DNA from: Deltaproteobacteria bacterium | GTDB lineage: Bacteria; Myxococcota_A; Polyangia; GCA-2747355 | Direction of reading: 5' to 3' | NCBI GenBank assembly: GCA_020633415.1 | Contig: JACKDQ010000002.1 | Span: forward strand, 134,945-198,944 | Length of the DNA: 64,000 bases | Shown: positions 5,140-64,000 of the stretch, piece after piece | Layout of the letters: each line of letters opens with the position of its first letter | How positions within the stretch are numbered: position 1 is the stretch's first letter | The notes under the pieces: model-generated | Databases searched by the model: none | What the model saw: only the letters and a program-made list of their open reading frames with translations | Told to the model about the DNA's origin: nothing | Translations under genes and position numbers: made by a program

Positions 5140-6129
5140 ATGGGTCGTGCCAGCCACTCCACCGCCGAGGCGGTCCAGGTTCCCTCGATCGACGTGCTGC
5201 TGATCGATGATGATCCGGATGACTACGTGATCACCCGGGATCTGCTGCTCAACGCTCGCCAACTCAATCTCGAATGGATCGACTCGGCCGAGCGAGCGAT
5301 CAACGAGATGGCGACCAACCGCCATCAGGTCTACTTGCTCGACTTCCACTTGGGCGCGCTCGACGGCTTGACCGTCTGGGAACAAGCCACCGCCTCCGGC
5401 TGCCAAGGCGCGGTGATCTTCCTAACCGGTGAGGGTGGACGCGACATCGACCTGGTGGTGATGGACCGCGGGGCCCACGACTACATCGCCAAAGAAGAGG
5501 TCACCGCCGAACGGTTGGAGCGCGCGATCCGCTACGCCTATCGTTCACAGCGACGAACCCAAGAGCTCCAAAGCCTGGCGAGCAGCGATACGCTGACCGG
5601 ACTGCTCAACCAGGCAGGCTTTCGCCAGCAGGCCAGCTTGGCCCTGGCGCGTTCGATTCGCAACAAGACCAGCGGCGCGCTGCTGTTTATCGACCTCGAT
5701 GGCTTCAAACCGATCAACGATACCGTCGGTCATCAAGCCGGCGACGAGGTGCTGCGGGTTGTCGCCCAACGTTTGCGCGAGACGGTACGACACACCGACG
5801 TGATCGGTCGCGTCGGTGGAGACGAGTTTGCCGTGGTCTTGGAACGCGTCGATGGCCAAGACAATGTCCGCGCAATCGCCGACAAGGTGCTCGAGAGCAT
5901 CTGCCAGCCGATCGAGGCGATGGGACAGGTGGTGCGCGTCGGCGCCAGCATCGGCGCGAGCATGTTTCCCCGCGACGGCATGGACGTCGAGCGACTGATC
6001 CAGCGCGCCGACACCGCGATGTACCACTGCAAGCAGACCGGCGGCCGCCAATGCGCCTTTTACGAGGCGGATATGCAAACGCTAACCGGCGGCTGGCCCA
6101 TCGACCTTCTAGCGTCCGACGACGACTAG
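5140..6129 (+). CDS. response regulator receiver + GGDEF diguanylate cyclase
   Basis: Receiver (VLLIDDDPDD...YLLDFHL) followed by a GGDEF domain (RVGGDEFAVVL), with an RHTD I-site 5 residues upstream of GGDEF. Confidence 0.9.
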   Translation: MGRASHSTAEAVQVPSIDVLLIDDDPDDYVITRDLLLNARQLNLEWIDSAERAINEMATNRHQVYLLDFHLGALDGLTVWEQATASGCQGAVIFLTGEGGRDIDLVVMDRGAHDYIAKEEVTAERLERAIRYAYRSQRRTQELQSLASSDTLTGLLNQAGFRQQASLALARSIRNKTSGALLFIDLDGFKPINDTVGHQAGDEVLRVVAQRLRETVRHTDVIGRVGGDEFAVVLERVDGQDNVRAIADKVLESICQPIEAMGQVVRVGASIGASMFPRDGMDVERLIQRADTAMYHCKQTGGRQCAFYEADMQTLTGGWPIDLLASDDD

Positions 6130-6132
6130 ATT

Positions 6133-6182
6133 CCCCCTTTGCCTGGGGCGACTTTTTTTCGCGGAGCGAGCGCATTTTTTTT
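6133..6182 (+). terminator. possible intrinsic terminator region (two short GC stems, each followed by a T7-T8 run)
   Basis: CCCC..GGGG stem followed by T7 (6153-6159), then a weak stem followed by T8 (6175-6182), just after the GGDEF gene stop at 6129. Confidence 0.35.
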
Positions 6183-52019: not shown

Positions 52020-54176
52020 CTAGTTTTGCGGCTCGTCAAAGAACAACGGCTCGCGGTGCTTGATGAACTCTTTGAGCACACCCTCGACGTCGGGCGAAAG
52101 CGCGACAAACTCGACCCCGACGCCGGCAGCCCATTGCGGAGCAGCAGGGTTAGGCTCACGTCGCCAGCGGACGCGGGCCGGGACGACGAAACGCGTCCGC
52201 CCACCGGGAAGCGAGAAAGCGACGTCTAGCTCAGTGCCAATCGCGGGTCCATCGGCCGTGGCCACGAACAGACCGCCGCAGCCGATGTTCTGGGAGAACC
52301 CCAAGTAAAAGTTGTGCTCGGTGAAGTAGTCCACGTCGACTTCAAGGCGCACGCGAGCCGTGTGCCGACGCTCGCCACTTGACGAAGTTTTCGAATCGCC
52401 TCGCCCAACAACCAACCTCGCACCCTGTTCGCGCTGCAGCGTCGGTGTATTCGCGCGCCCAAGCTGGGCGTTGCGTAGGTCTGCAGCATACATCGCCGCG
52501 CCAACGACGACGGCCCGCTTGGGATGGACCACCGCCCGCGGAGCACGGCCAAAGAACTGGCCGACAGCGTGGCGAAGCGCCGGCAGACTGCAGCTACCAC
52601 CAGCGAGATACACCGCATCGAGATCTTCGACGTTCAGCGCAGCATCGCGAAGCACAGTGCGACAAATACCAAGCGCGCGCTCGATCAGGCCCTTGGACAA
52701 GTCGTCAAGTCGTTGTTTGGAAACCGTCCAACTCAGCGACCGCGGCTGATCGCTACCAAGACACACATCACTGAGCGACAAGCGAACCTCGTTTTCCATC
52801 GACAGAGCGCACTTGGCCCGTTCGGCTTCAAGCAGCAGGCGCTGCCAGATCGCGATCTGGTTACGCAAGTCAACCGCTGAGTGCTCAACGAACACAGCGG
52901 CAGCAGCGTCAGCGAGCGCGGCGTCCAAGTCGTCGCCGCCCAACCAAACGTCACCCGCCGTGGCGATCACGCTGTAGTCCGCACGAGTCACATCGATCAC
53001 GCTGAACTCAAACGTCCCACCGCCAAAATCGAACACAGCGACCGTCTTCTGCTCACTCAGCTCGCCGCGCTGGGCGATCGCAGCAGCGGTCGGCTGATCG
53101 ATCAATTCGCGAACCTCTAGACCGACCATTTTCGCCGCTGCGCGCAAAGCGTCGCAGCCTCCGTGCGGGAAGCTCACCGGTACGGCCAATACCGCCTCTG
53201 AAATCTCGACGCCCAGCTGCTGCTCGGCGATGAATTTAATCTGCCCCAAGATCGGCGCGCAGAGCTGCGGAATCGCGTAGTGGCGGCCGTCGACTTCGAT
53301 CAGGATCTCCCCGGCGGCCCCACGAACGCTCGGCGCGGCAATCGTTGCCAAATACGCCTGAATCGCCGGGTCATCGAAAGACCGCCCGAGCAGGCGCAGC
53401 GGGCTGGGGACGACGCGATCCGGTTGTCGCGCCGACAAATCCCGTGCCGGCTGTCCGGTGATCACGCCGTTTCGGACAAAGCCGACCGCGGAGGGAATAC
53501 TCCAATCACGGCTGGTGAGCTTGATCACGCGTGATTGGCTGCCGATCACCACCGCCACCGAAGATCTGGCGGTACCGAAGTCGATCGCGATCAGTGGCGG
53601 GCGAACCGAGCTCCATTTGAGCGGAGACTGAAACGCCCGAACGGTATCTTCACTCTCGCTCAATGCATGTCCCGCCGTGAGATCTTCGACTTCGTCGAAG
53701 CGCAGCAGGCCCTCAAAGTCTGCATAGCGACGCGTCGGTAGCGTGACGCTCACGCTCTGCTCGTCGATCGCGAACAACTGACTCTCACCGAACCCAGGCG
53801 AGTAAAACGGCTGTTTCGCCGGGACGGCCTCGCAGCCCTTGGCCGCCCGATCGATCAACGCCTGGTATGACGCAATGCGCTGCGCCGTCGCCGCGTCCAA
53901 TTCCACGCCCACACCGCGTGGCTCCTCGCTCTGGATGTGAACCACCCGCCCCTTTAGCGGCAAGCGATCACCGTCGGGCAGCGTCAGCGTGATCGAAACG
54001 CGCTCACCCACAGGCAATGGTTCGCCACACGGCACGAACAAGCCACCCCGCCCGACGTTTGCCGAAAACAGCTCTCGCGCCTGCTGCCAATCGACACAGC
54101 TCAGGCTTAGCGGCACGCGCAAAGGAAACCGGGCAAAGTTCCGTCGCCGCTTCCCACGGGGGGGATGCTCGCTCAT
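52020..54176 (-). CDS. PilZ - Hsp70/actin-fold nucleotide-binding domain - PilZ protein (no substrate-binding domain)
   Basis: N-terminal RNFAR...NVGRGGLFV and C-terminal RHTAR...NIGCGGLFV (PilZ RxxxR / (D/N)xGxxG). Central IAIDFGTARSSVAV, VFDFGGGTFEFSV and YLAGGSCSLP are Hsp70 NBD phosphate/adenosine motifs. Confidence 0.85.
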   Translation of the reverse strand: MSEHPPRGKRRRNFARFPLRVPLSLSCVDWQQARELFSANVGRGGLFVPCGEPLPVGERVSITLTLPDGDRLPLKGRVVHIQSEEPRGVGVELDAATAQRIASYQALIDRAAKGCEAVPAKQPFYSPGFGESQLFAIDEQSVSVTLPTRRYADFEGLLRFDEVEDLTAGHALSESEDTVRAFQSPLKWSSVRPPLIAIDFGTARSSVAVVIGSQSRVIKLTSRDWSIPSAVGFVRNGVITGQPARDLSARQPDRVVPSPLRLLGRSFDDPAIQAYLATIAAPSVRGAAGEILIEVDGRHYAIPQLCAPILGQIKFIAEQQLGVEISEAVLAVPVSFPHGGCDALRAAAKMVGLEVRELIDQPTAAAIAQRGELSEQKTVAVFDFGGGTFEFSVIDVTRADYSVIATAGDVWLGGDDLDAALADAAAAVFVEHSAVDLRNQIAIWQRLLLEAERAKCALSMENEVRLSLSDVCLGSDQPRSLSWTVSKQRLDDLSKGLIERALGICRTVLRDAALNVEDLDAVYLAGGSCSLPALRHAVGQFFGRAPRAVVHPKRAVVVGAAMYAADLRNAQLGRANTPTLQREQGARLVVGRGDSKTSSSGERRHTARVRLEVDVDYFTEHNFYLGFSQNIGCGGLFVATADGPAIGTELDVAFSLPGGRTRFVVPARVRWRREPNPAAPQWAAGVGVEFVALSPDVEGVLKEFIKHREPLFFDEPQN

Positions 54177-59238: not shown

Positions 59239-60900
59239 CTAGTGCGGTTCGCTAGCGATGATCGCCTGGTAGGTCAGCAGTCCCCCGCTGAGGTTGCGCG
59301 CATCAAAACCATGCTGGCGTAGCGCGCGAACGGCGTAATAGGCGCGCTGACCGACCCGGCAATACAGCCAAAGCTCGCCACCTTGAGGCAATTTGTCGAG
59401 GCCCTGGCGCAATTGAGAAAGCGGCAAGCTGAGTGCGCCGGGGATGTGCTCGGACTCGAATTCATTGGGTTCGCGAACGTCGACCAGCGTGACATCACCG
59501 CGTTGATCGAGCGCCCGCCAACTGGCAAGCGGCATGTCGCCACGCAAAACATTGGCGGCGATCATCCCGGCCATGTTGACCGGATCTTTGGCGGCGCCAA
59601 ACTGTGGCGCGTAGCACAACTCGGCTTCTTCGAGGTCGTAGACCGTTGCACCCATTTGGATCGCCATCGCGATCACATCGATCCGTCGCTCGACCCCGGC
59701 CTCGCCCGTGGCTTGCGCCCCGAGAATCTTGCCGTCGGCCAGCGAAAACGTCAGCTTCAGGTGAATCGGCCGCGCGCCGGGATAATAGCCAACGTGATGC
59801 CCAGGGTGTAGATAGATGCTCGCCACGTCGCTTTGGGCGCGCTCGGCGAGCAGCTTCTCCGTCGCACCGGTCTGCGCAATGACTTGGTCGAACACGCCGC
59901 AAACGGCAGTCGACTGCACGCCGCGAAAGCGCGAGCCGCGGCCGGCGATGCTGTCGGCGGCGACGCGTCCCTGGCGGTTGGCCGGACCCGCCAACGGCAC
60001 GATGTGCGGCGTCCCGTGGACGACGTGGGTCACCTCGATCGCGTCACCGACCGCCCAAATATGCGGGTCACTGGTTTGCATCTCCGTATCGACTTGGATC
60101 GCTTTGGTCTGGCCGAGGGTTAGCCCAGCGTCGGCGGCCAAGCTGGTCTCGGGAACGATGCCCATCCCAAGGATCACCAGGTCGGCAGGAAACCGGCTGC
60201 CGTCCCGGGTCGCGACGGTCAATCCGCCACCATCGGGCGAAAAGCCGGCGACACCATCACCGAGGTGCAACTTTACGCCCTTGCGCTGTAACGTTTCAGC
60301 GATCGGCGCAGCCATCTCGCGATCGAGGCTCGGCATCACCTGCTCGGCAAGCTCGATCAAGGTCACCTCGACGCCCCGGCGCGTGAGGTTCTCGGCCATC
60401 TCCAACCCAATAAACCCAGCGCCGACCACCACCGCCCGCTGAACGTTCTTTTCGACCAACCAGCTGCGGATCAACCGACTGTCGGGGATCGTCCGCAGCG
60501 AAAAGATGCCTGGCAGATCGATACCGGGGATCGGCGGTCGAACCGGACGACCTCCCGGCGAGAGAACCAACGCGTCGTAGCGCTCTTGATAGTCGCGCCT
60601 GCCCTTTAGGTCGCGAACGATCACCGTTTGCCCTGCGCGATCGATCGAGAGCACCTCGCTATCGGTGCGCACGTCGATAGCAAAGCGCTCCCGAAAGAGC
60701 TCCGGCGAAGCGACGAGCAGTTTGCGCTCATCGGCGATGACGTCGCCAACGTAATAGGGCAGGCCGCAGTTGGCGAAGCTCACGTAAGGCCCGCGGTCAA
60801 AAACAACGATCTCCCAGTGTTCTTTGAGACGTCGCAATCGTGCCGCACATGAAGCACCGCCGGCGACGCCCCCAACGATCAACGCGCGCTTTTTTTCCAT
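59239..60900 (-). CDS. CoA-disulfide/persulfide reductase-type FAD oxidoreductase with C-terminal rhodanese domain
   Basis: Start MEKKRALIVGGVAGGASCA (FAD fold). Redox Cys in SFANCGLPYY. Rhodanese loop CRVGQR. Confidence 0.9.
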   Translation of the reverse strand: MEKKRALIVGGVAGGASCAARLRRLKEHWEIVVFDRGPYVSFANCGLPYYVGDVIADERKLLVASPELFRERFAIDVRTDSEVLSIDRAGQTVIVRDLKGRRDYQERYDALVLSPGGRPVRPPIPGIDLPGIFSLRTIPDSRLIRSWLVEKNVQRAVVVGAGFIGLEMAENLTRRGVEVTLIELAEQVMPSLDREMAAPIAETLQRKGVKLHLGDGVAGFSPDGGGLTVATRDGSRFPADLVILGMGIVPETSLAADAGLTLGQTKAIQVDTEMQTSDPHIWAVGDAIEVTHVVHGTPHIVPLAGPANRQGRVAADSIAGRGSRFRGVQSTAVCGVFDQVIAQTGATEKLLAERAQSDVASIYLHPGHHVGYYPGARPIHLKLTFSLADGKILGAQATGEAGVERRIDVIAMAIQMGATVYDLEEAELCYAPQFGAAKDPVNMAGMIAANVLRGDMPLASWRALDQRGDVTLVDVREPNEFESEHIPGALSLPLSQLRQGLDKLPQGGELWLYCRVGQRAYYAVRALRQHGFDARNLSGGLLTYQAIIASEPH

Positions 60901-61543: not shown

Positions 61544-61987
61544 ATGAAGATCAACGACCGAGCCCCCGCTCATGCCCGCGACGATATCCTGATCGCGGCC
61601 CCACTCGAACTGGTCTGGCAGCTCCACTGTGACGTCGACAACTGGGCCAACTGGCAACCGGACATTTCGCGAGCCAAACTCGATACGCCGCTTGCTATCG
61701 GCGCCTCCTTCACCTGGAAGGCCGGACCGGCGGCGATCGCCTCGCGCATCGAGGCCTTTGAGCCACAGCGCACGATGGGCTGGAGCGGCAAGGCGATGGG
61801 AGCGCGAGCGTTGCACGTCTGGCACTTCGACCGGCGTGGTGACCAAACCTACGTTGAAACCGCCGAGTCGCTCGAAGGGCTGGTGATCCGCATGGCCGGC
61901 CGCAAAGCCCAGGCAATGCTTGAAAAGACCTGTCGCCGCTGGCTCGAAGCGCTCAAAGCCGAGGCTGAACGCCGTCACGCTGGCTGA
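61544..61987 (+). CDS. SRPBCC-family (polyketide cyclase/Bet v1-like) protein
   Basis: ...ILIAAPLELVWQLHCDVDNWANWQPDI... is a typical SRPBCC N-terminus. Alternative start at 61505. Confidence 0.7.
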   Translation: MKINDRAPAHARDDILIAAPLELVWQLHCDVDNWANWQPDISRAKLDTPLAIGASFTWKAGPAAIASRIEAFEPQRTMGWSGKAMGARALHVWHFDRRGDQTYVETAESLEGLVIRMAGRKAQAMLEKTCRRWLEALKAEAERRHAG

Positions 61988-62038
61988 GCCCTATTTCCGC
62001 TGTTGTGGCGACGGCTTCCCGACCGAAGGCCGCCGAGA

Positions 62039-62067
62039 TTGACGACTGAGCTGTGGGCTGCTATCAA
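62039..62067 (+). promoter_or_regulatory. sigma70-type promoter for the his leader
   Basis: TTGACG, 17 nt, TATCAA. The predicted TSS is about 62074, 2 nt before the leader ATG. Confidence 0.45.
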
Positions 62068-62075
62068 TTCAACCG

Positions 62076-62162
62076 ATGATTGGCCCGCAAAAATGCCACG
62101 CCTGCGTTGCTGACCGCCATCACGGTCATCATCACCATTGTGATCATCGAGGGCCGGCCTAG
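62076..62162 (+). CDS. hisL: histidine-rich leader peptide (28 codons): MIGPQKCHACVADRHHGHHHHCDHRGPA
   Basis: Hand-translated and below the ORF-track cutoff. 8 His codons, 7 of them within 10 consecutive codons. Lies immediately upstream of a terminator and hisG. Confidence 0.6.
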   Translation: MIGPQKCHACVADRHHGHHHHCDHRGPA

Positions 62163-62186
62163 GTATTTTCCCAGCAAGTTGAACCA

Positions 62187-62216
62187 ACGTCGGCCTCCGA
62201 GCCGGCGTTTTTTTTT
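62187..62216 (+). terminator. intrinsic terminator (attenuator) upstream of hisG
   Basis: 8-bp stem ACGTCGGC / GCCGGCGT (one G-U pair) with a 6-nt loop, followed by T9 (62208-62216). Lies 62 nt before the hisG ATG. Confidence 0.7.
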
Positions 62217-62278
62217 GCGCGATCTTCCTGCCCCAAAAAAAACGCCCCGCCCGGTGGTCAAGAAGATGGACCGTCGAA

Positions 62279-63151
62279 ATGGAAAACAAGGGAATCGAAC
62301 CGCTCAAGCTAGCGCTGCCCAAAGGGCGGATGCAGGACGGCGTGCTGTCCTTACTGGCCGATGCCGGCATCGCACTGACCAATACCGCGCGCAGCTACCG
62401 CCCACAGATCTCGCTGGCCAACTGCGAAGTCAAGCAGCTCAAGCCACAAAACGTCGTCGAGATGCTCCATGTCGGCTCACGCGATATCGGCTTTGCCGGT
62501 GCCGACTGGGTCGCTGAGCTGGGCGTCGAAGTGGTCGAGCTGCTCAACACCGAGCTCAACCCGGTCGAGATCGTGCTCGCGGCACCACCAGCGTTGCTCG
62601 ATGGCGGAGAACTTCCGCCACGTCGATTGTTGCTGGCAACTGAATACGTTCGGTTGACCAGCGATTGGATCGACGCGCGTGGACGCACCGATCAGGTGCT
62701 GCGGACCTACGGCGCTACAGAGGTATTTCCTCCCGAGGACGCCGATGCGATCGTCGACAACTCAGCAACAGGCAGCACGCTGGCGGCAAACGGCCTGCAG
62801 ATCGTCGACCGATTGATGCGGTCTTCGACACGCCTCTACGCTAACCCGCGCGCGCTCGACAACCCAACCAAGCGCCAACGCATCGAAGACCTCAAGCTGC
62901 TGCTCTGCGCGGTGCTCGACGCGCGACGACGGGTCATGCTCGAGGTCAACGTTTCGAAAGACCGCCTCGATGAGGTACTGACAACGCTGCCCTGCATGCG
63001 CCAGCCGACGATCGCTTCGCTGGCCAACGATGCGGGGTTCGCCGTCAAAGTCGCCATCCCCCGTGCACAGCTCGCCGATACCGTTCCGCGTGTACGCGCC
63101 GCCGGCGGCACTGATATCGTGATCACTCGCCCGGAGCAAATCATCGCATGA
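62279..63151 (+). CDS. hisG: ATP phosphoribosyltransferase (long form)
   Basis: LKLALPKGRMQD N-terminus and overall HisG similarity. 290 aa implies a C-terminal regulatory domain. Confidence 0.9.
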   Translation: MENKGIEPLKLALPKGRMQDGVLSLLADAGIALTNTARSYRPQISLANCEVKQLKPQNVVEMLHVGSRDIGFAGADWVAELGVEVVELLNTELNPVEIVLAAPPALLDGGELPPRRLLLATEYVRLTSDWIDARGRTDQVLRTYGATEVFPPEDADAIVDNSATGSTLAANGLQIVDRLMRSSTRLYANPRALDNPTKRQRIEDLKLLLCAVLDARRRVMLEVNVSKDRLDEVLTTLPCMRQPTIASLANDAGFAVKVAIPRAQLADTVPRVRAAGGTDIVITRPEQIIA

Positions 63152-64000
63152 CCACACCGCCCAAAGCTGTCGGCGCCCTCGGCGAAATGCGACGCTACGC
63201 GCCAAACAAACACCCGGCGCCGATCGAGTTGCGCCTTTCGGGCAACGAGGGTGCTTTGCGCGATCCGCAGATCGCGGCGCGATTGGCCAGCGCGATCAGC
63301 GCATCGAGCCTGCGAGACTACCCCGATACGACGTCGTTAACCGCCCAAGTCGCCGAGCGCTTCGGGGTCACCACAGATCGCGTGCTGGTCACCGCCGGCG
63401 CCGATGACGCGCTCTACCGAGCGCTGCTTTGCTACGCCAGTGGTCGTAATGTCGTGCTGCCCAGCCCGACTTTTGAGATGCTCGACCGTTATATTGCGCT
63501 GGTTGGTGGCGAGCTGCGCACGATCCCGTGGACTCAGCCGAGCTACCCGTTGCAAGAGGTAGAATCGCAGATCGACCCGAACACCGGTGTGGTCTTCGTC
63601 GTCAGCCCCAACAATCCGACCGGCGGCTGCTGCTCGCCCGCGCAGCTTAAGCGCCTGCTCCGCAGCGCTAACAATGCGCTAGTGATCGTCGACGAGGCTT
63701 ACGGAGAATTTGCCAACGAGCCGTTGACCGAAATCGCGCTAAGCAGTCCCAATGCGCTGCTGCTGCGAACCCTCTCGAAGGCCTGGGGACTGGCCGGCCT
63801 TCGCGTGGGCTTTGCGATCGGCGCCCCAGAAGTCATCGAAGTGCTGCGCAGCGTCGGACAACCTTACGCGGTCAGTGGTCCATCGCTAGCGATCGCTGTT
63901 GCCGCCCTCGCCGCAGAAGGCCACTGGGTTGACGACTACGTCGACCGCGTCCGTACCGAACGCGAACAACTCGTCCAGCTGCTTGCAGAGCTCGGCCAGA
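63148..64000 (+). CDS. hisC: histidinol-phosphate aminotransferase (3'-truncated by the window)
   Basis: ATGA overlap with hisG. Hand translation gives ...SPNNPTG...VDEAY...TLSKAWGLAGLRVG (PLP-Lys motif). Absent from the ORF track because there is no in-window stop. Confidence 0.85.
   Translation, partial: MTTPPKAVGALGEMRRYAPNKHPAPIELRLSGNEGALRDPQIAARLASAISASSLRDYPDTTSLTAQVAERFGVTTDRVLVTAGADDALYRALLCYASGRNVVLPSPTFEMLDRYIALVGGELRTIPWTQPSYPLQEVESQIDPNTGVVFVVSPNNPTGGCCSPAQLKRLLRSANNALVIVDEAYGEFANEPLTEIALSSPNALLLRTLSKAWGLAGLRVGFAIGAPEVIEVLRSVGQPYAVSGPSLAIAVAALAAEGHWVDDYVDRVRTEREQLVQLLAELGQ

Follow-up and report, generated by a model that had tools for sequence, protein, structure and literature searches.

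A candidate His-codon transcription attenuator, probably with a leaderless leader ORF, upstream of hisG and its relatives in several bacterial phyla

Overview

Directly upstream of hisG, in a 64,000-nt stretch of contig JACKDQ010000002.1 (Deltaproteobacteria bacterium), lies a compact leader region composed of a promoter, a short open reading frame (ORF) with a run of His codons, and an intrinsic terminator. The region very probably functions as a ribosome-mediated transcription attenuator of a hisG-hisC-hisB-hisH operon, a role read from sequence. A His attenuator had been proposed here in a sequence-only reading of the same DNA, and the proposal has gained support from the conservation of the element upstream of hisG elsewhere, from a covarying terminator, from the position of the antiterminator strand, and from the spacing of the promoter. 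All coordinates are those of the whole 64,000-nt stretch (hereafter the window; G+C 62%) and of its + strand unless stated otherwise. The features on which the argument draws are these:

62039-62044, + strand: -35 box TTGACG, read from the sequence, starting at -37 relative to the leader ATG.
62062-62067, + strand: -10 box TATCAA, set off by a 17-nt spacer from the -35 box, with its end 8 nt short of the leader ATG; the -11 A is present and the final T missing.
62074-62076, + strand: predicted transcription start, for a 5' untranslated region (5' UTR) of 0-2 nt, placed from the usual gap of 6-8 nt between -10 box and +1 and from the spacing in the family.
62076-62162, + strand: leader ORF encoding MIGPQKCHACVADRHHGHHHHCDHRGPA, with ATG at 62076, 28 codons, and TAG at 62160-62162.
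62118-62147, + strand: His-codon cluster, seven of ten codons being His, the proposed ribosome-stalling site; one further His codon stands at 62097.
62131-62144, + strand: small in-ORF hairpin AUCAC-CAUU-GUGAU seen in folds, with His codons paired to Cys-Asp codons.
62151-62158, + strand: antiterminator 5' strand GGGCCGGC, 2-9 nt before the leader UAG, paired with GUCGGCCU (62189-62196) in minimum free energy (MFE) folds.
62186-62209, + strand: terminator hairpin AACGUCGGC / CUCCGA / GCCGGCGUU, -14.3 kcal/mol, the 5' arm of which doubles as the antiterminator 3' strand (62189-62196).
62208-62216, + strand: U9 tract of the intrinsic terminator, the sole T9 in 64 kb.
62235-62246, + strand: A8 plus CGCC, exact complement of GGCG plus U8 (62204-62215), predicted to form a hairpin of -17.3 kcal/mol in read-through RNA.
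62251-62275, + strand: predicted 8-bp hairpin just ahead of the hisG start, from the MFE fold only.
62279-63151, + strand: hisG, ATP phosphoribosyltransferase, long form, 290 aa, with Pfam domains HisG and HisG_C.

A family of His leaders upstream of hisG

Conservation upstream of hisG was set in advance as a test of the attenuator, and was followed in two collections. The first consisted of 80 hisG loci from GTDB species-representative genomes with HisG identities of 55-64%, in which the metagenome-assembled genomes (MAGs) carry the labels Gemmatimonadota, Phycisphaerae/Planctomycetota, Acidobacteriota, Myxococcota, Eisenbacteria, and Fimbriimonadales; the second consisted of 80 independent metagenomic hisG loci. 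At 58 of the 80 genome loci, a short ORF in which four or more His fall within eight codons was present 130-330 nt upstream of the hisG match. Members poorer in His were missed by this screen and were recovered by a covariance model, R1, built from 54 of the hisG-upstream regions that the screen had found, with the window excluded. R1 added 16 genome loci to those of the His-run screen, for a total of about 74 of 80, and matched 70 of the 80 metagenome loci, His ORF and hairpin thus being conserved in both collections. All R1 matches were on the same strand and just upstream of hisG, including those at the loci of the closest HisG relatives (66-69% identity), which scored 65-72 bits. The window itself holds a single match, at 62115-62221 on the + strand (46.5 bits, E 2.9e-8), ending 58 nt before hisG, with the runner-up at 11.8 bits.

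The R1 element was not found upstream of hisG in L059, L061, L001, L002, L036, and L045. L059 and L061, both from MAGs labelled 'Alphaproteobacteria', share an arrangement cttgacag...gccttggccggga..ccggcgaacggtgattc..ATG about 120 nt upstream of hisG, without a His-rich ORF, and this 5' region may be a different control element.

Members of the family are laid out alike, with a TTGAC -35 box, a -10-like box, an ATG, 15-35 codons of which 4-9 are His, the CGCCGGCC hairpin, and a U-rich tail. The hairpin stem, CGCCGGCC / GGCCGGCG, is almost invariant. The ORF usually ends in GGCCGGnTGA followed by TGATGGTG, a complement of the His codons, and in most relatives UGAUGGUG, again complementary to the His codons, comes directly after the leader stop. 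Within the leader His codons the CA is fixed and the third position is divided between U (174) and C (164), which points to selection at the level of the codon. The window's own long ORFs use 56 CAT and 141 CAC; the surplus of CAU in the leaders may stem from the pairing with UGAUGGUG or from the less frequent codon being favoured where histidine is sensed.

The terminator helix of the family, 10 bp long, was assessed with the window left out of the alignment and was found to be 91% paired, with compensatory changes at seven of the ten pairs, values reached by none of 500 shuffles; the RNAalifold consensus structure is this same hairpin. The U-tails are often poor, 28 of 57 family sequences having 3-5 U within the 10 nt after the stem.

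Evidence for a competing structure was sought in folds that began immediately beyond a ribosome placed at the middle His codon and ended at the terminator loop, that is, with the 3' arm still unmade. The 5' arm of the terminator pairs with an upstream strand in all 57 family sequences, and in 37 of them at least 5 nt of the arm have their partners between positions -10 and +5, counted from the first base of the leader stop (shuffles: mean 9.8, maximum 15). A Gemmatimonadales subgroup has its antiterminator strand about 20 nt before the leader stop. The 6-bp antiterminator helix, GGCCGG:CCGGCC, is 83% paired, compared with 24-67% in slid registers, and nine cells carry double changes, which none of 500 shuffles attained; CCGACC arms, for example, are accompanied by GGTCGG strands. 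The covariation of the antiterminator is modest. The palindrome GGCCGGCC at 62152-62159, nominated as an antiterminator strand in the sequence-only reading, gains support from this covariation together with its conserved position at the leader stop.

Judged by sequence, then, the window element is a diverged member of a large His-leader family spanning at least six phyla. The 5' arm of its terminator has U for the consensus C (ACGUCGGCC), giving a G-U pair, and it alone among the family members bears an A8 tract.

Two other accounts of the ORF and the hairpin bear on these data. According to the first, the hairpin and T9 would terminate the upstream gene or stand alone as a terminator, the His ORF would be coincidental, and hisG would have its own promoter further downstream. 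The hairpin would indeed serve as a good generic intrinsic terminator, and terminator-like sites in the region are not above the level of shuffles (three found by a generic scan, 2.7 expected). Such a coincidence is nonetheless highly improbable: the order ORF-hairpin-hisG is kept in most of the 160 loci, in several phyla and whatever the upstream gene; the His run is unique in the window, where the 10-codon windows with at least five His codons in any of the six frames all fall at 62106-62127 on the + strand; the promoter directly precedes the ORF; and a promoter scan found no promoter-like site between T9 and hisG.

The second account would have the small ORF encode a functional His-rich peptide, for instance a metal-binding micro-protein, in keeping with a composition of 8 His and 3 Cys among 28 residues. 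It can be given hardly any more credence, in that the relatives keep only the His run and the RNA-constrained C-terminal codons while length and other residues vary freely, the ORF is always coupled to hisG and the hairpin, and one subgroup has Tyr codons replacing His. The element thus continues to be read here as an attenuator.

The leaders of that subgroup, the Palauibacter group of Gemmatimonadota (e.g. MTNTHPFFGHYYYHRVRGGR, followed by the stop), merit a separate description. Tyr codons (TAT/TAC) stand in the places of His codons (CAT/CAC), and 2-4 His are left; such leaders may sense Tyr as well, or may be decaying. Tyr-codon leaders occur in L064 (2843-2959), L032, L035, L037, L042, L044, L047, L055, L057, L067, L074, L076, and L079.

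Promoter, leader ORF, and mode of initiation

The promoter, the 28-codon ORF, the seven His codons in ten, and the ATG devoid of a Shine-Dalgarno sequence (SD), all described in the sequence-only reading, were each located in the sequence at the positions given for them, and the features listed for the leader region do not look like the product of chance. No purine-rich SD was found in the 16 nt preceding the leader ATG (gctatcaattcaaccgATG), the start codon being ATG, and there is no alternative in-frame ATG, GTG, or TTG from the upstream stop (62040-62042) to 62076.

The geometry of the promoter is kept in the family. An exact TTGAC is found 34-45 nt, mostly 35-40 nt, before the leader start codon at 40 of 59 related loci, and the relaxed motif TTG[AC][CG] occupies that position at 52 of the 59. 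Among these 52 loci with a -35-like box, the best -10 hexamer at a spacer of 16-18 nt ends 6-11 nt before the ATG in 48, the corresponding distance in the window being 8 nt. A -10 box is usually followed by +1 at a distance of about 7 nt; the gap of 6-11 nt in the family therefore corresponds to a 5' UTR of 0-5 nt, too short to hold an SD.

Judging by this geometry, the leader ORF of the window is probably leaderless. The suggestion of a leaderless leader had been made in the sequence-only reading and is strengthened by a promoter spacing kept across phyla; its description as an unusual variant has to be tempered, as there is precedent in the polycysteine ORFs of mycobacteria, discussed below.

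It is possible, if appreciably less likely, that the attenuator is real and the leader not truly leaderless, initiation by the 30S subunit being SD-independent on a short SD-less 5' UTR or on transcripts reading through from the upstream SRPBCC gene; only the route of initiation would change, and the logic of attenuation would be the same. The 6-11 nt gap of the family leaves room for 5' UTRs of up to 5 nt as well as of none. A terminator scan found no terminator between the end of the upstream gene (61987) and the leader promoter. As even hisG has no more than a weak SD, initiation that does not depend on an SD may be widespread in this organism. L163 (1000-1216) and L166 (1280-1501), nearest to the window by HisG (66-69% identity), tell against strict leaderlessness: their predicted -10 box and their leader ATG or GTG are 15-17 nt apart, with a GTTGAG common to both in the interval, and either leaderlessness is not universal in the family or these leaders start at an upstream TTG. 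On the other hand, the fixed distance between -35 box and ATG across phyla would be hard to explain unless the start codon were tied to the 5' end of the transcript, and the -10 box of the window is a mere 8 nt away from the ATG. A leaderless start is accordingly retained as the preferred reading for the window.

Terminator, antiterminator, and proposed mechanism

The terminator stem of the window is formed by 62186-62194 with 62201-62209 (9 bp, one of them G-U, around the loop CUCCGA) and encloses the 8-bp hairpin at 62187-62208 that, with T9, had been recognised from the letters alone. The hairpin begins 24 nt past the leader stop, and T9 ends 62 nt ahead of the hisG ATG at 62279. As terminator tails go, this U9 is at the upper end of strength.

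The following scheme can be proposed, in which the kinetics of the switch, the stalling of the ribosome, and the role of the A8 tract are inferred. The sigma-70-type promoter would start transcription on the AUG at 62076 or no more than about 2 nt from it, and the ORF would be translated as a leaderless or nearly leaderless message. With ample charged tRNA-His, the ribosome would reach the UAG at 62160 and cover GGGCCGGC (62151-62158), whereupon the hairpin 62186-62209 with its U9 would form and RNA polymerase would terminate 62 nt ahead of hisG. With tRNA-His scarce, the ribosome would stall in the His cluster (62118-62138), its leading edge short of 62151, and GGGCCGGC would be free to pair with 62189-62196 before the 3' arm is made, allowing read-through into hisG. 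Once read-through has released the 3' arm and the U-tract, these would pair with A8CGCC (62235-62246), making the antiterminated fold the global minimum and presumably locking or stabilising the full-length mRNA.

Folds of the window agree with several of these steps. With a ribosome masking the His cluster, the antiterminator fold is the MFE structure (-18.1 kcal/mol) of transcripts ending at 62196-62204, and antiterminator plus U9:A8 hairpin is the MFE structure (-34.6 kcal/mol) of the transcript to 62250. With the ribosome placed on the stop codon, the antiterminator strand is masked and the terminator alone (-14.3 kcal/mol) can form. The sequence-only reading had called for a folding check for mutually exclusive structures, and its outcome is divided: antiterminator and terminator do alternate in growing transcripts, but the terminator is the MFE structure once complete.

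A number of results count against an attenuator of this design in the window. When the 3' arm has been transcribed (62208-62216) with the ribosome at the His cluster, the terminator conformer is ahead by about 3 kcal/mol. The terminator thus wins at equilibrium once fully transcribed, and antitermination must therefore be kinetic, the antiterminator forming first; this kinetic argument is based on MFE folds of growing transcripts, and equilibrium folding with a ribosome mask alone does not reproduce the switch. For an untranslated leader the folds predict read-through, unlike the classical trp and his designs, and the folding energy of the region is ordinary relative to shuffles (z -1.2 and -1.7). 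The UGAUGGUG segment of the relatives is absent from the window, where the in-ORF GUGAU (62140-62144) pairs instead with AUCAC (62131-62135), a hairpin that takes the place of the family pairing between His codons and UGAUGGUG. The promoter went uncalled in a generic promoter scan because its -10 box ends in A instead of T. A8CGCC is transcribed at least 19 nt past the U-tract, after the point of termination, and therefore cannot affect the termination decision itself.

The A8 tract downstream of the terminator

The exact complementarity of A8CGCC to GGCGT8, pointed out in the sequence-only reading, was confirmed. The A8 is the sole run of at least seven A in the 64-kb window, and its uniqueness, together with 12 nt of perfect complementarity, argues that it is under selection. 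Downstream segments able to pair with the 3' arm and tail of the terminator are found again in part of the family, with z below -2 at 14 of 57 loci, mostly of the Phycisphaerae type, the window having a z of -2.0. An A-tract as such was seen in no relative, either in side-by-side family regions or at the loci of the nearest HisG relatives. Closer relatives were sought for this comparison: scans of genomes and metagenomes gave none above 64% HisG identity, and a protein search returned an identical protein, which NCBI assigns to a 'Deltaproteobacteria bacterium' MAG, and, as next best, one of 69% identity, the loci of the 66-69% relatives carrying canonical family leaders without the A-tract. 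The closest natural variant, L082 on a contig of metagenome SRR17907852, is 99.7% identical and has T7 for T9, three substitutions, and an unchanged A8; the T7 may be a genuine variant or an error made in assembling the homopolymer. The pairing of A8 with U9 is real and lineage-specific.

As to its role, the best guess is that A8CGCC would pair with the 3' arm and the U-tract once read-through has set them free, locking the RNA in the antiterminated fold and burying a U-run that would otherwise be long and single-stranded. Two other origins were considered and dismissed. As part of a minus-strand or bidirectional terminator the tract is unsuitable, the minus-strand hairpin being followed by GGUUCAAC and not by a U-run, with no minus-strand gene ending there; as ends of a tiny mobile element, A8 and T9 have only 18 nt between them and no further copies in the window.

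Control might also be mainly post-transcriptional, alternative folds (including the U9:A8 hairpin and the hairpin at 62251-62275) gating hisG translation or mRNA stability, with termination at T9 secondary. The poor U-tails of many relatives (3-5 U in 10 nt, 28 of 57) are in line with this, as are the recurrence of a downstream complement to the terminator 3' arm, the altered structure of the hisG 5' UTR in the read-through fold, and the precedent of translational attenuation by leaderless ORFs (bioRxiv 10.1101/834739). It is an unlikely account for the window all the same, as the U9 tail there is very strong and the hisG start, 62 nt beyond U9, is sequestered by leader hairpins in none of the folds. 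Transcription attenuation is hence still taken as the principal output.

More speculative, and rather doubtful as a whole, is a joint reading in which a widespread family, a truly leaderless ORF, and a post-terminator lock that also sets the stability or translation of hisG mRNA are combined; if true, classical attenuation would gain, through the lock, another layer of control.

Gene context and other features of the window

The gene downstream of hisG completes the feature list:

63148-64000 (running off the window), + strand: HisC-type aminotransferase gene, its start overlapping the hisG stop (ATGA).

A metagenome contig with an identical HisG, L081, carries hisG followed by a 570-aa fusion of aminotransferase and HAD (L081:2393-4105), hisB (IGPD), and hisH. 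A fusion of HisC-type aminotransferase with HAD-family hydrolase was also found in the closest HisG relatives, and is possibly a histidinol-phosphate aminotransferase joined to a histidinol-phosphatase. The gene upstream of the leader, at 61544-61987, encodes an unrelated SRPBCC/polyketide-cyclase-like protein.

Apart from T9, T-runs of at least seven occur in the window only at 6153-6159, 6175-6182, and 60890-60896. The first two, T7 and T8 on the + strand, lie in tandem in the gap after the ORF 5140-6129, each behind G+C-rich sequence, and may be tandem terminators. Elsewhere, 52020-54176 on the minus strand encodes a 718-aa DnaK/HscA-like ATPase with a C-terminal TIGR02266 domain (Myxococcus paralogous, PilZ-like), which as a taxonomic sign speaks for Myxococcota-like bacteria.

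Significance

Novelty would lie in the family itself, in its extent over several phyla, in a probably leaderless layout, and in the complement beyond the terminator; the mechanism as such is of a known kind, and no principle is overturned. A His leader that is conserved in sequence and unrelated to those described would appear to stand upstream of hisG in the majority of the members sampled from several phyla that have been little studied and are largely without cultures. As part of the joint reading above, and with the same reserve, the family might prove to be among the most widespread leader-peptide switches outside the proteobacteria, being present at most sampled hisG loci of Gemmatimonadota, Planctomycetota, Acidobacteriota, Myxococcota, Eisenbacteria, and Armatimonadota. 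R1 provides an annotation model for a common but unannotated small ORF and regulatory RNA. If the start is as predicted, leaderless sensory ORFs extend beyond the Actinobacteria, and an attenuator as compact as this one, about 140 nt from start to U-tract, would offer a test system for the coupling of leaderless (70S) initiation to transcription. A specialist would not be greatly surprised by these findings, which make a solid addition to the catalogue of RNA regulators.

Comparison with known systems

Known RNA families offered no counterpart; for His leaders, Rfam has the enteric model alone. No Rfam 15 family, the T-box included, reached its gathering score anywhere in the window, and neither RF00514 (His_leader), the comparison with which had been asked for in the sequence-only reading, nor the T-box matched in 61900-62400 even at E up to 10. 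An Rfam scan of 15 related loci returned a tRNA as its sole match. Weak matches to mir-3613, suhB, and BSnc120 were set aside, reflecting merely the U-tract/A-tract hairpin or the terminator. In the searchable literature, His attenuators were found only for gamma-proteobacteria and Firmicutes and leaderless sensory ORFs only for Actinobacteria; no His leader was found there for Gemmatimonadota, Planctomycetota, Acidobacteriota, or Myxococcota, an earlier mention being still possible.

The element resembles hisL of E. coli and Salmonella (RF00514) in having a short ORF with a His run upstream of hisG and a terminator before the first structural gene, in the proposed choice between mutually exclusive RNA folds by ribosome position, and in its mixture of CAU and CAC codons. 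It differs in phylum and in the absence of any match of sequence or structure to RF00514. Furthermore, hisL has an SD and a 5' UTR, whereas the ATG of the window stands 8 nt after the -10 box. The enteric his leader is built of three stacked alternative hairpins, A:B, C:D, and E:F versus B:C and D:E; in the present element, the competitor for the sequence-conserved CGCCGGCC stem would be one antiterminator strand at the leader stop.

In its economy the element is comparable to trpL of E. coli, with which it shares a minimal set of regions pairing 1:2, 2:3, and 3:4, an antiterminator strand (region 2) that would be masked by a ribosome at the leader stop, and regulatory codons about 80 nt before the end of the U-tract. 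Unlike trpL, it has His in place of Trp codons, a start that is leaderless or nearly so, and the complement A8CGCC beyond the terminator. In addition, the 1:2 pairing of the window leaves the antiterminator strand free, so that by the folds an untranslated leader would allow read-through instead of super-attenuation.

Leader peptides were stated in 2010 to be unknown outside Proteobacteria and Actinobacteria (PMC2965389). Candidate His leader-peptide attenuators have been presented for the Bacillus cereus group, Peptostreptococcaceae, and Erysipelotrichales (PMC9413887), and His attenuators upstream of hisS/hisZ paralogues for bacilli (PMC2965389). These Firmicutes candidates likewise combine a short His-rich ORF with a terminator and antiterminator upstream of his genes, and like the present element have no RF00514 match; they belong to other phyla and are unrelated in sequence, and the two papers report neither a leaderless architecture nor an element shared across phyla. 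Their mechanism, though the same, is regarded as having arisen independently.

The nearest precedent for the proposed start is provided by the leaderless polycysteine ORFs of mycobacteria, which have been shown experimentally to sense Cys and to act on translation (bioRxiv 10.1101/834739). Common to both are a sensory ORF at the 5' end of the transcript (predicted in the present case), a run of codons for the amino acid of the operon, and, as proposed here, the stalling of the ribosome. The two differ in taxon, in the amino acid, and in the output: the polycysteine ORFs come from Actinobacteria and respond to Cys, whereas the window element, from a 'Deltaproteobacteria' MAG with relatives in Gemmatimonadota, Planctomycetota, Acidobacteriota, and Myxococcota, would sense His and deliver its signal through a strong intrinsic terminator.

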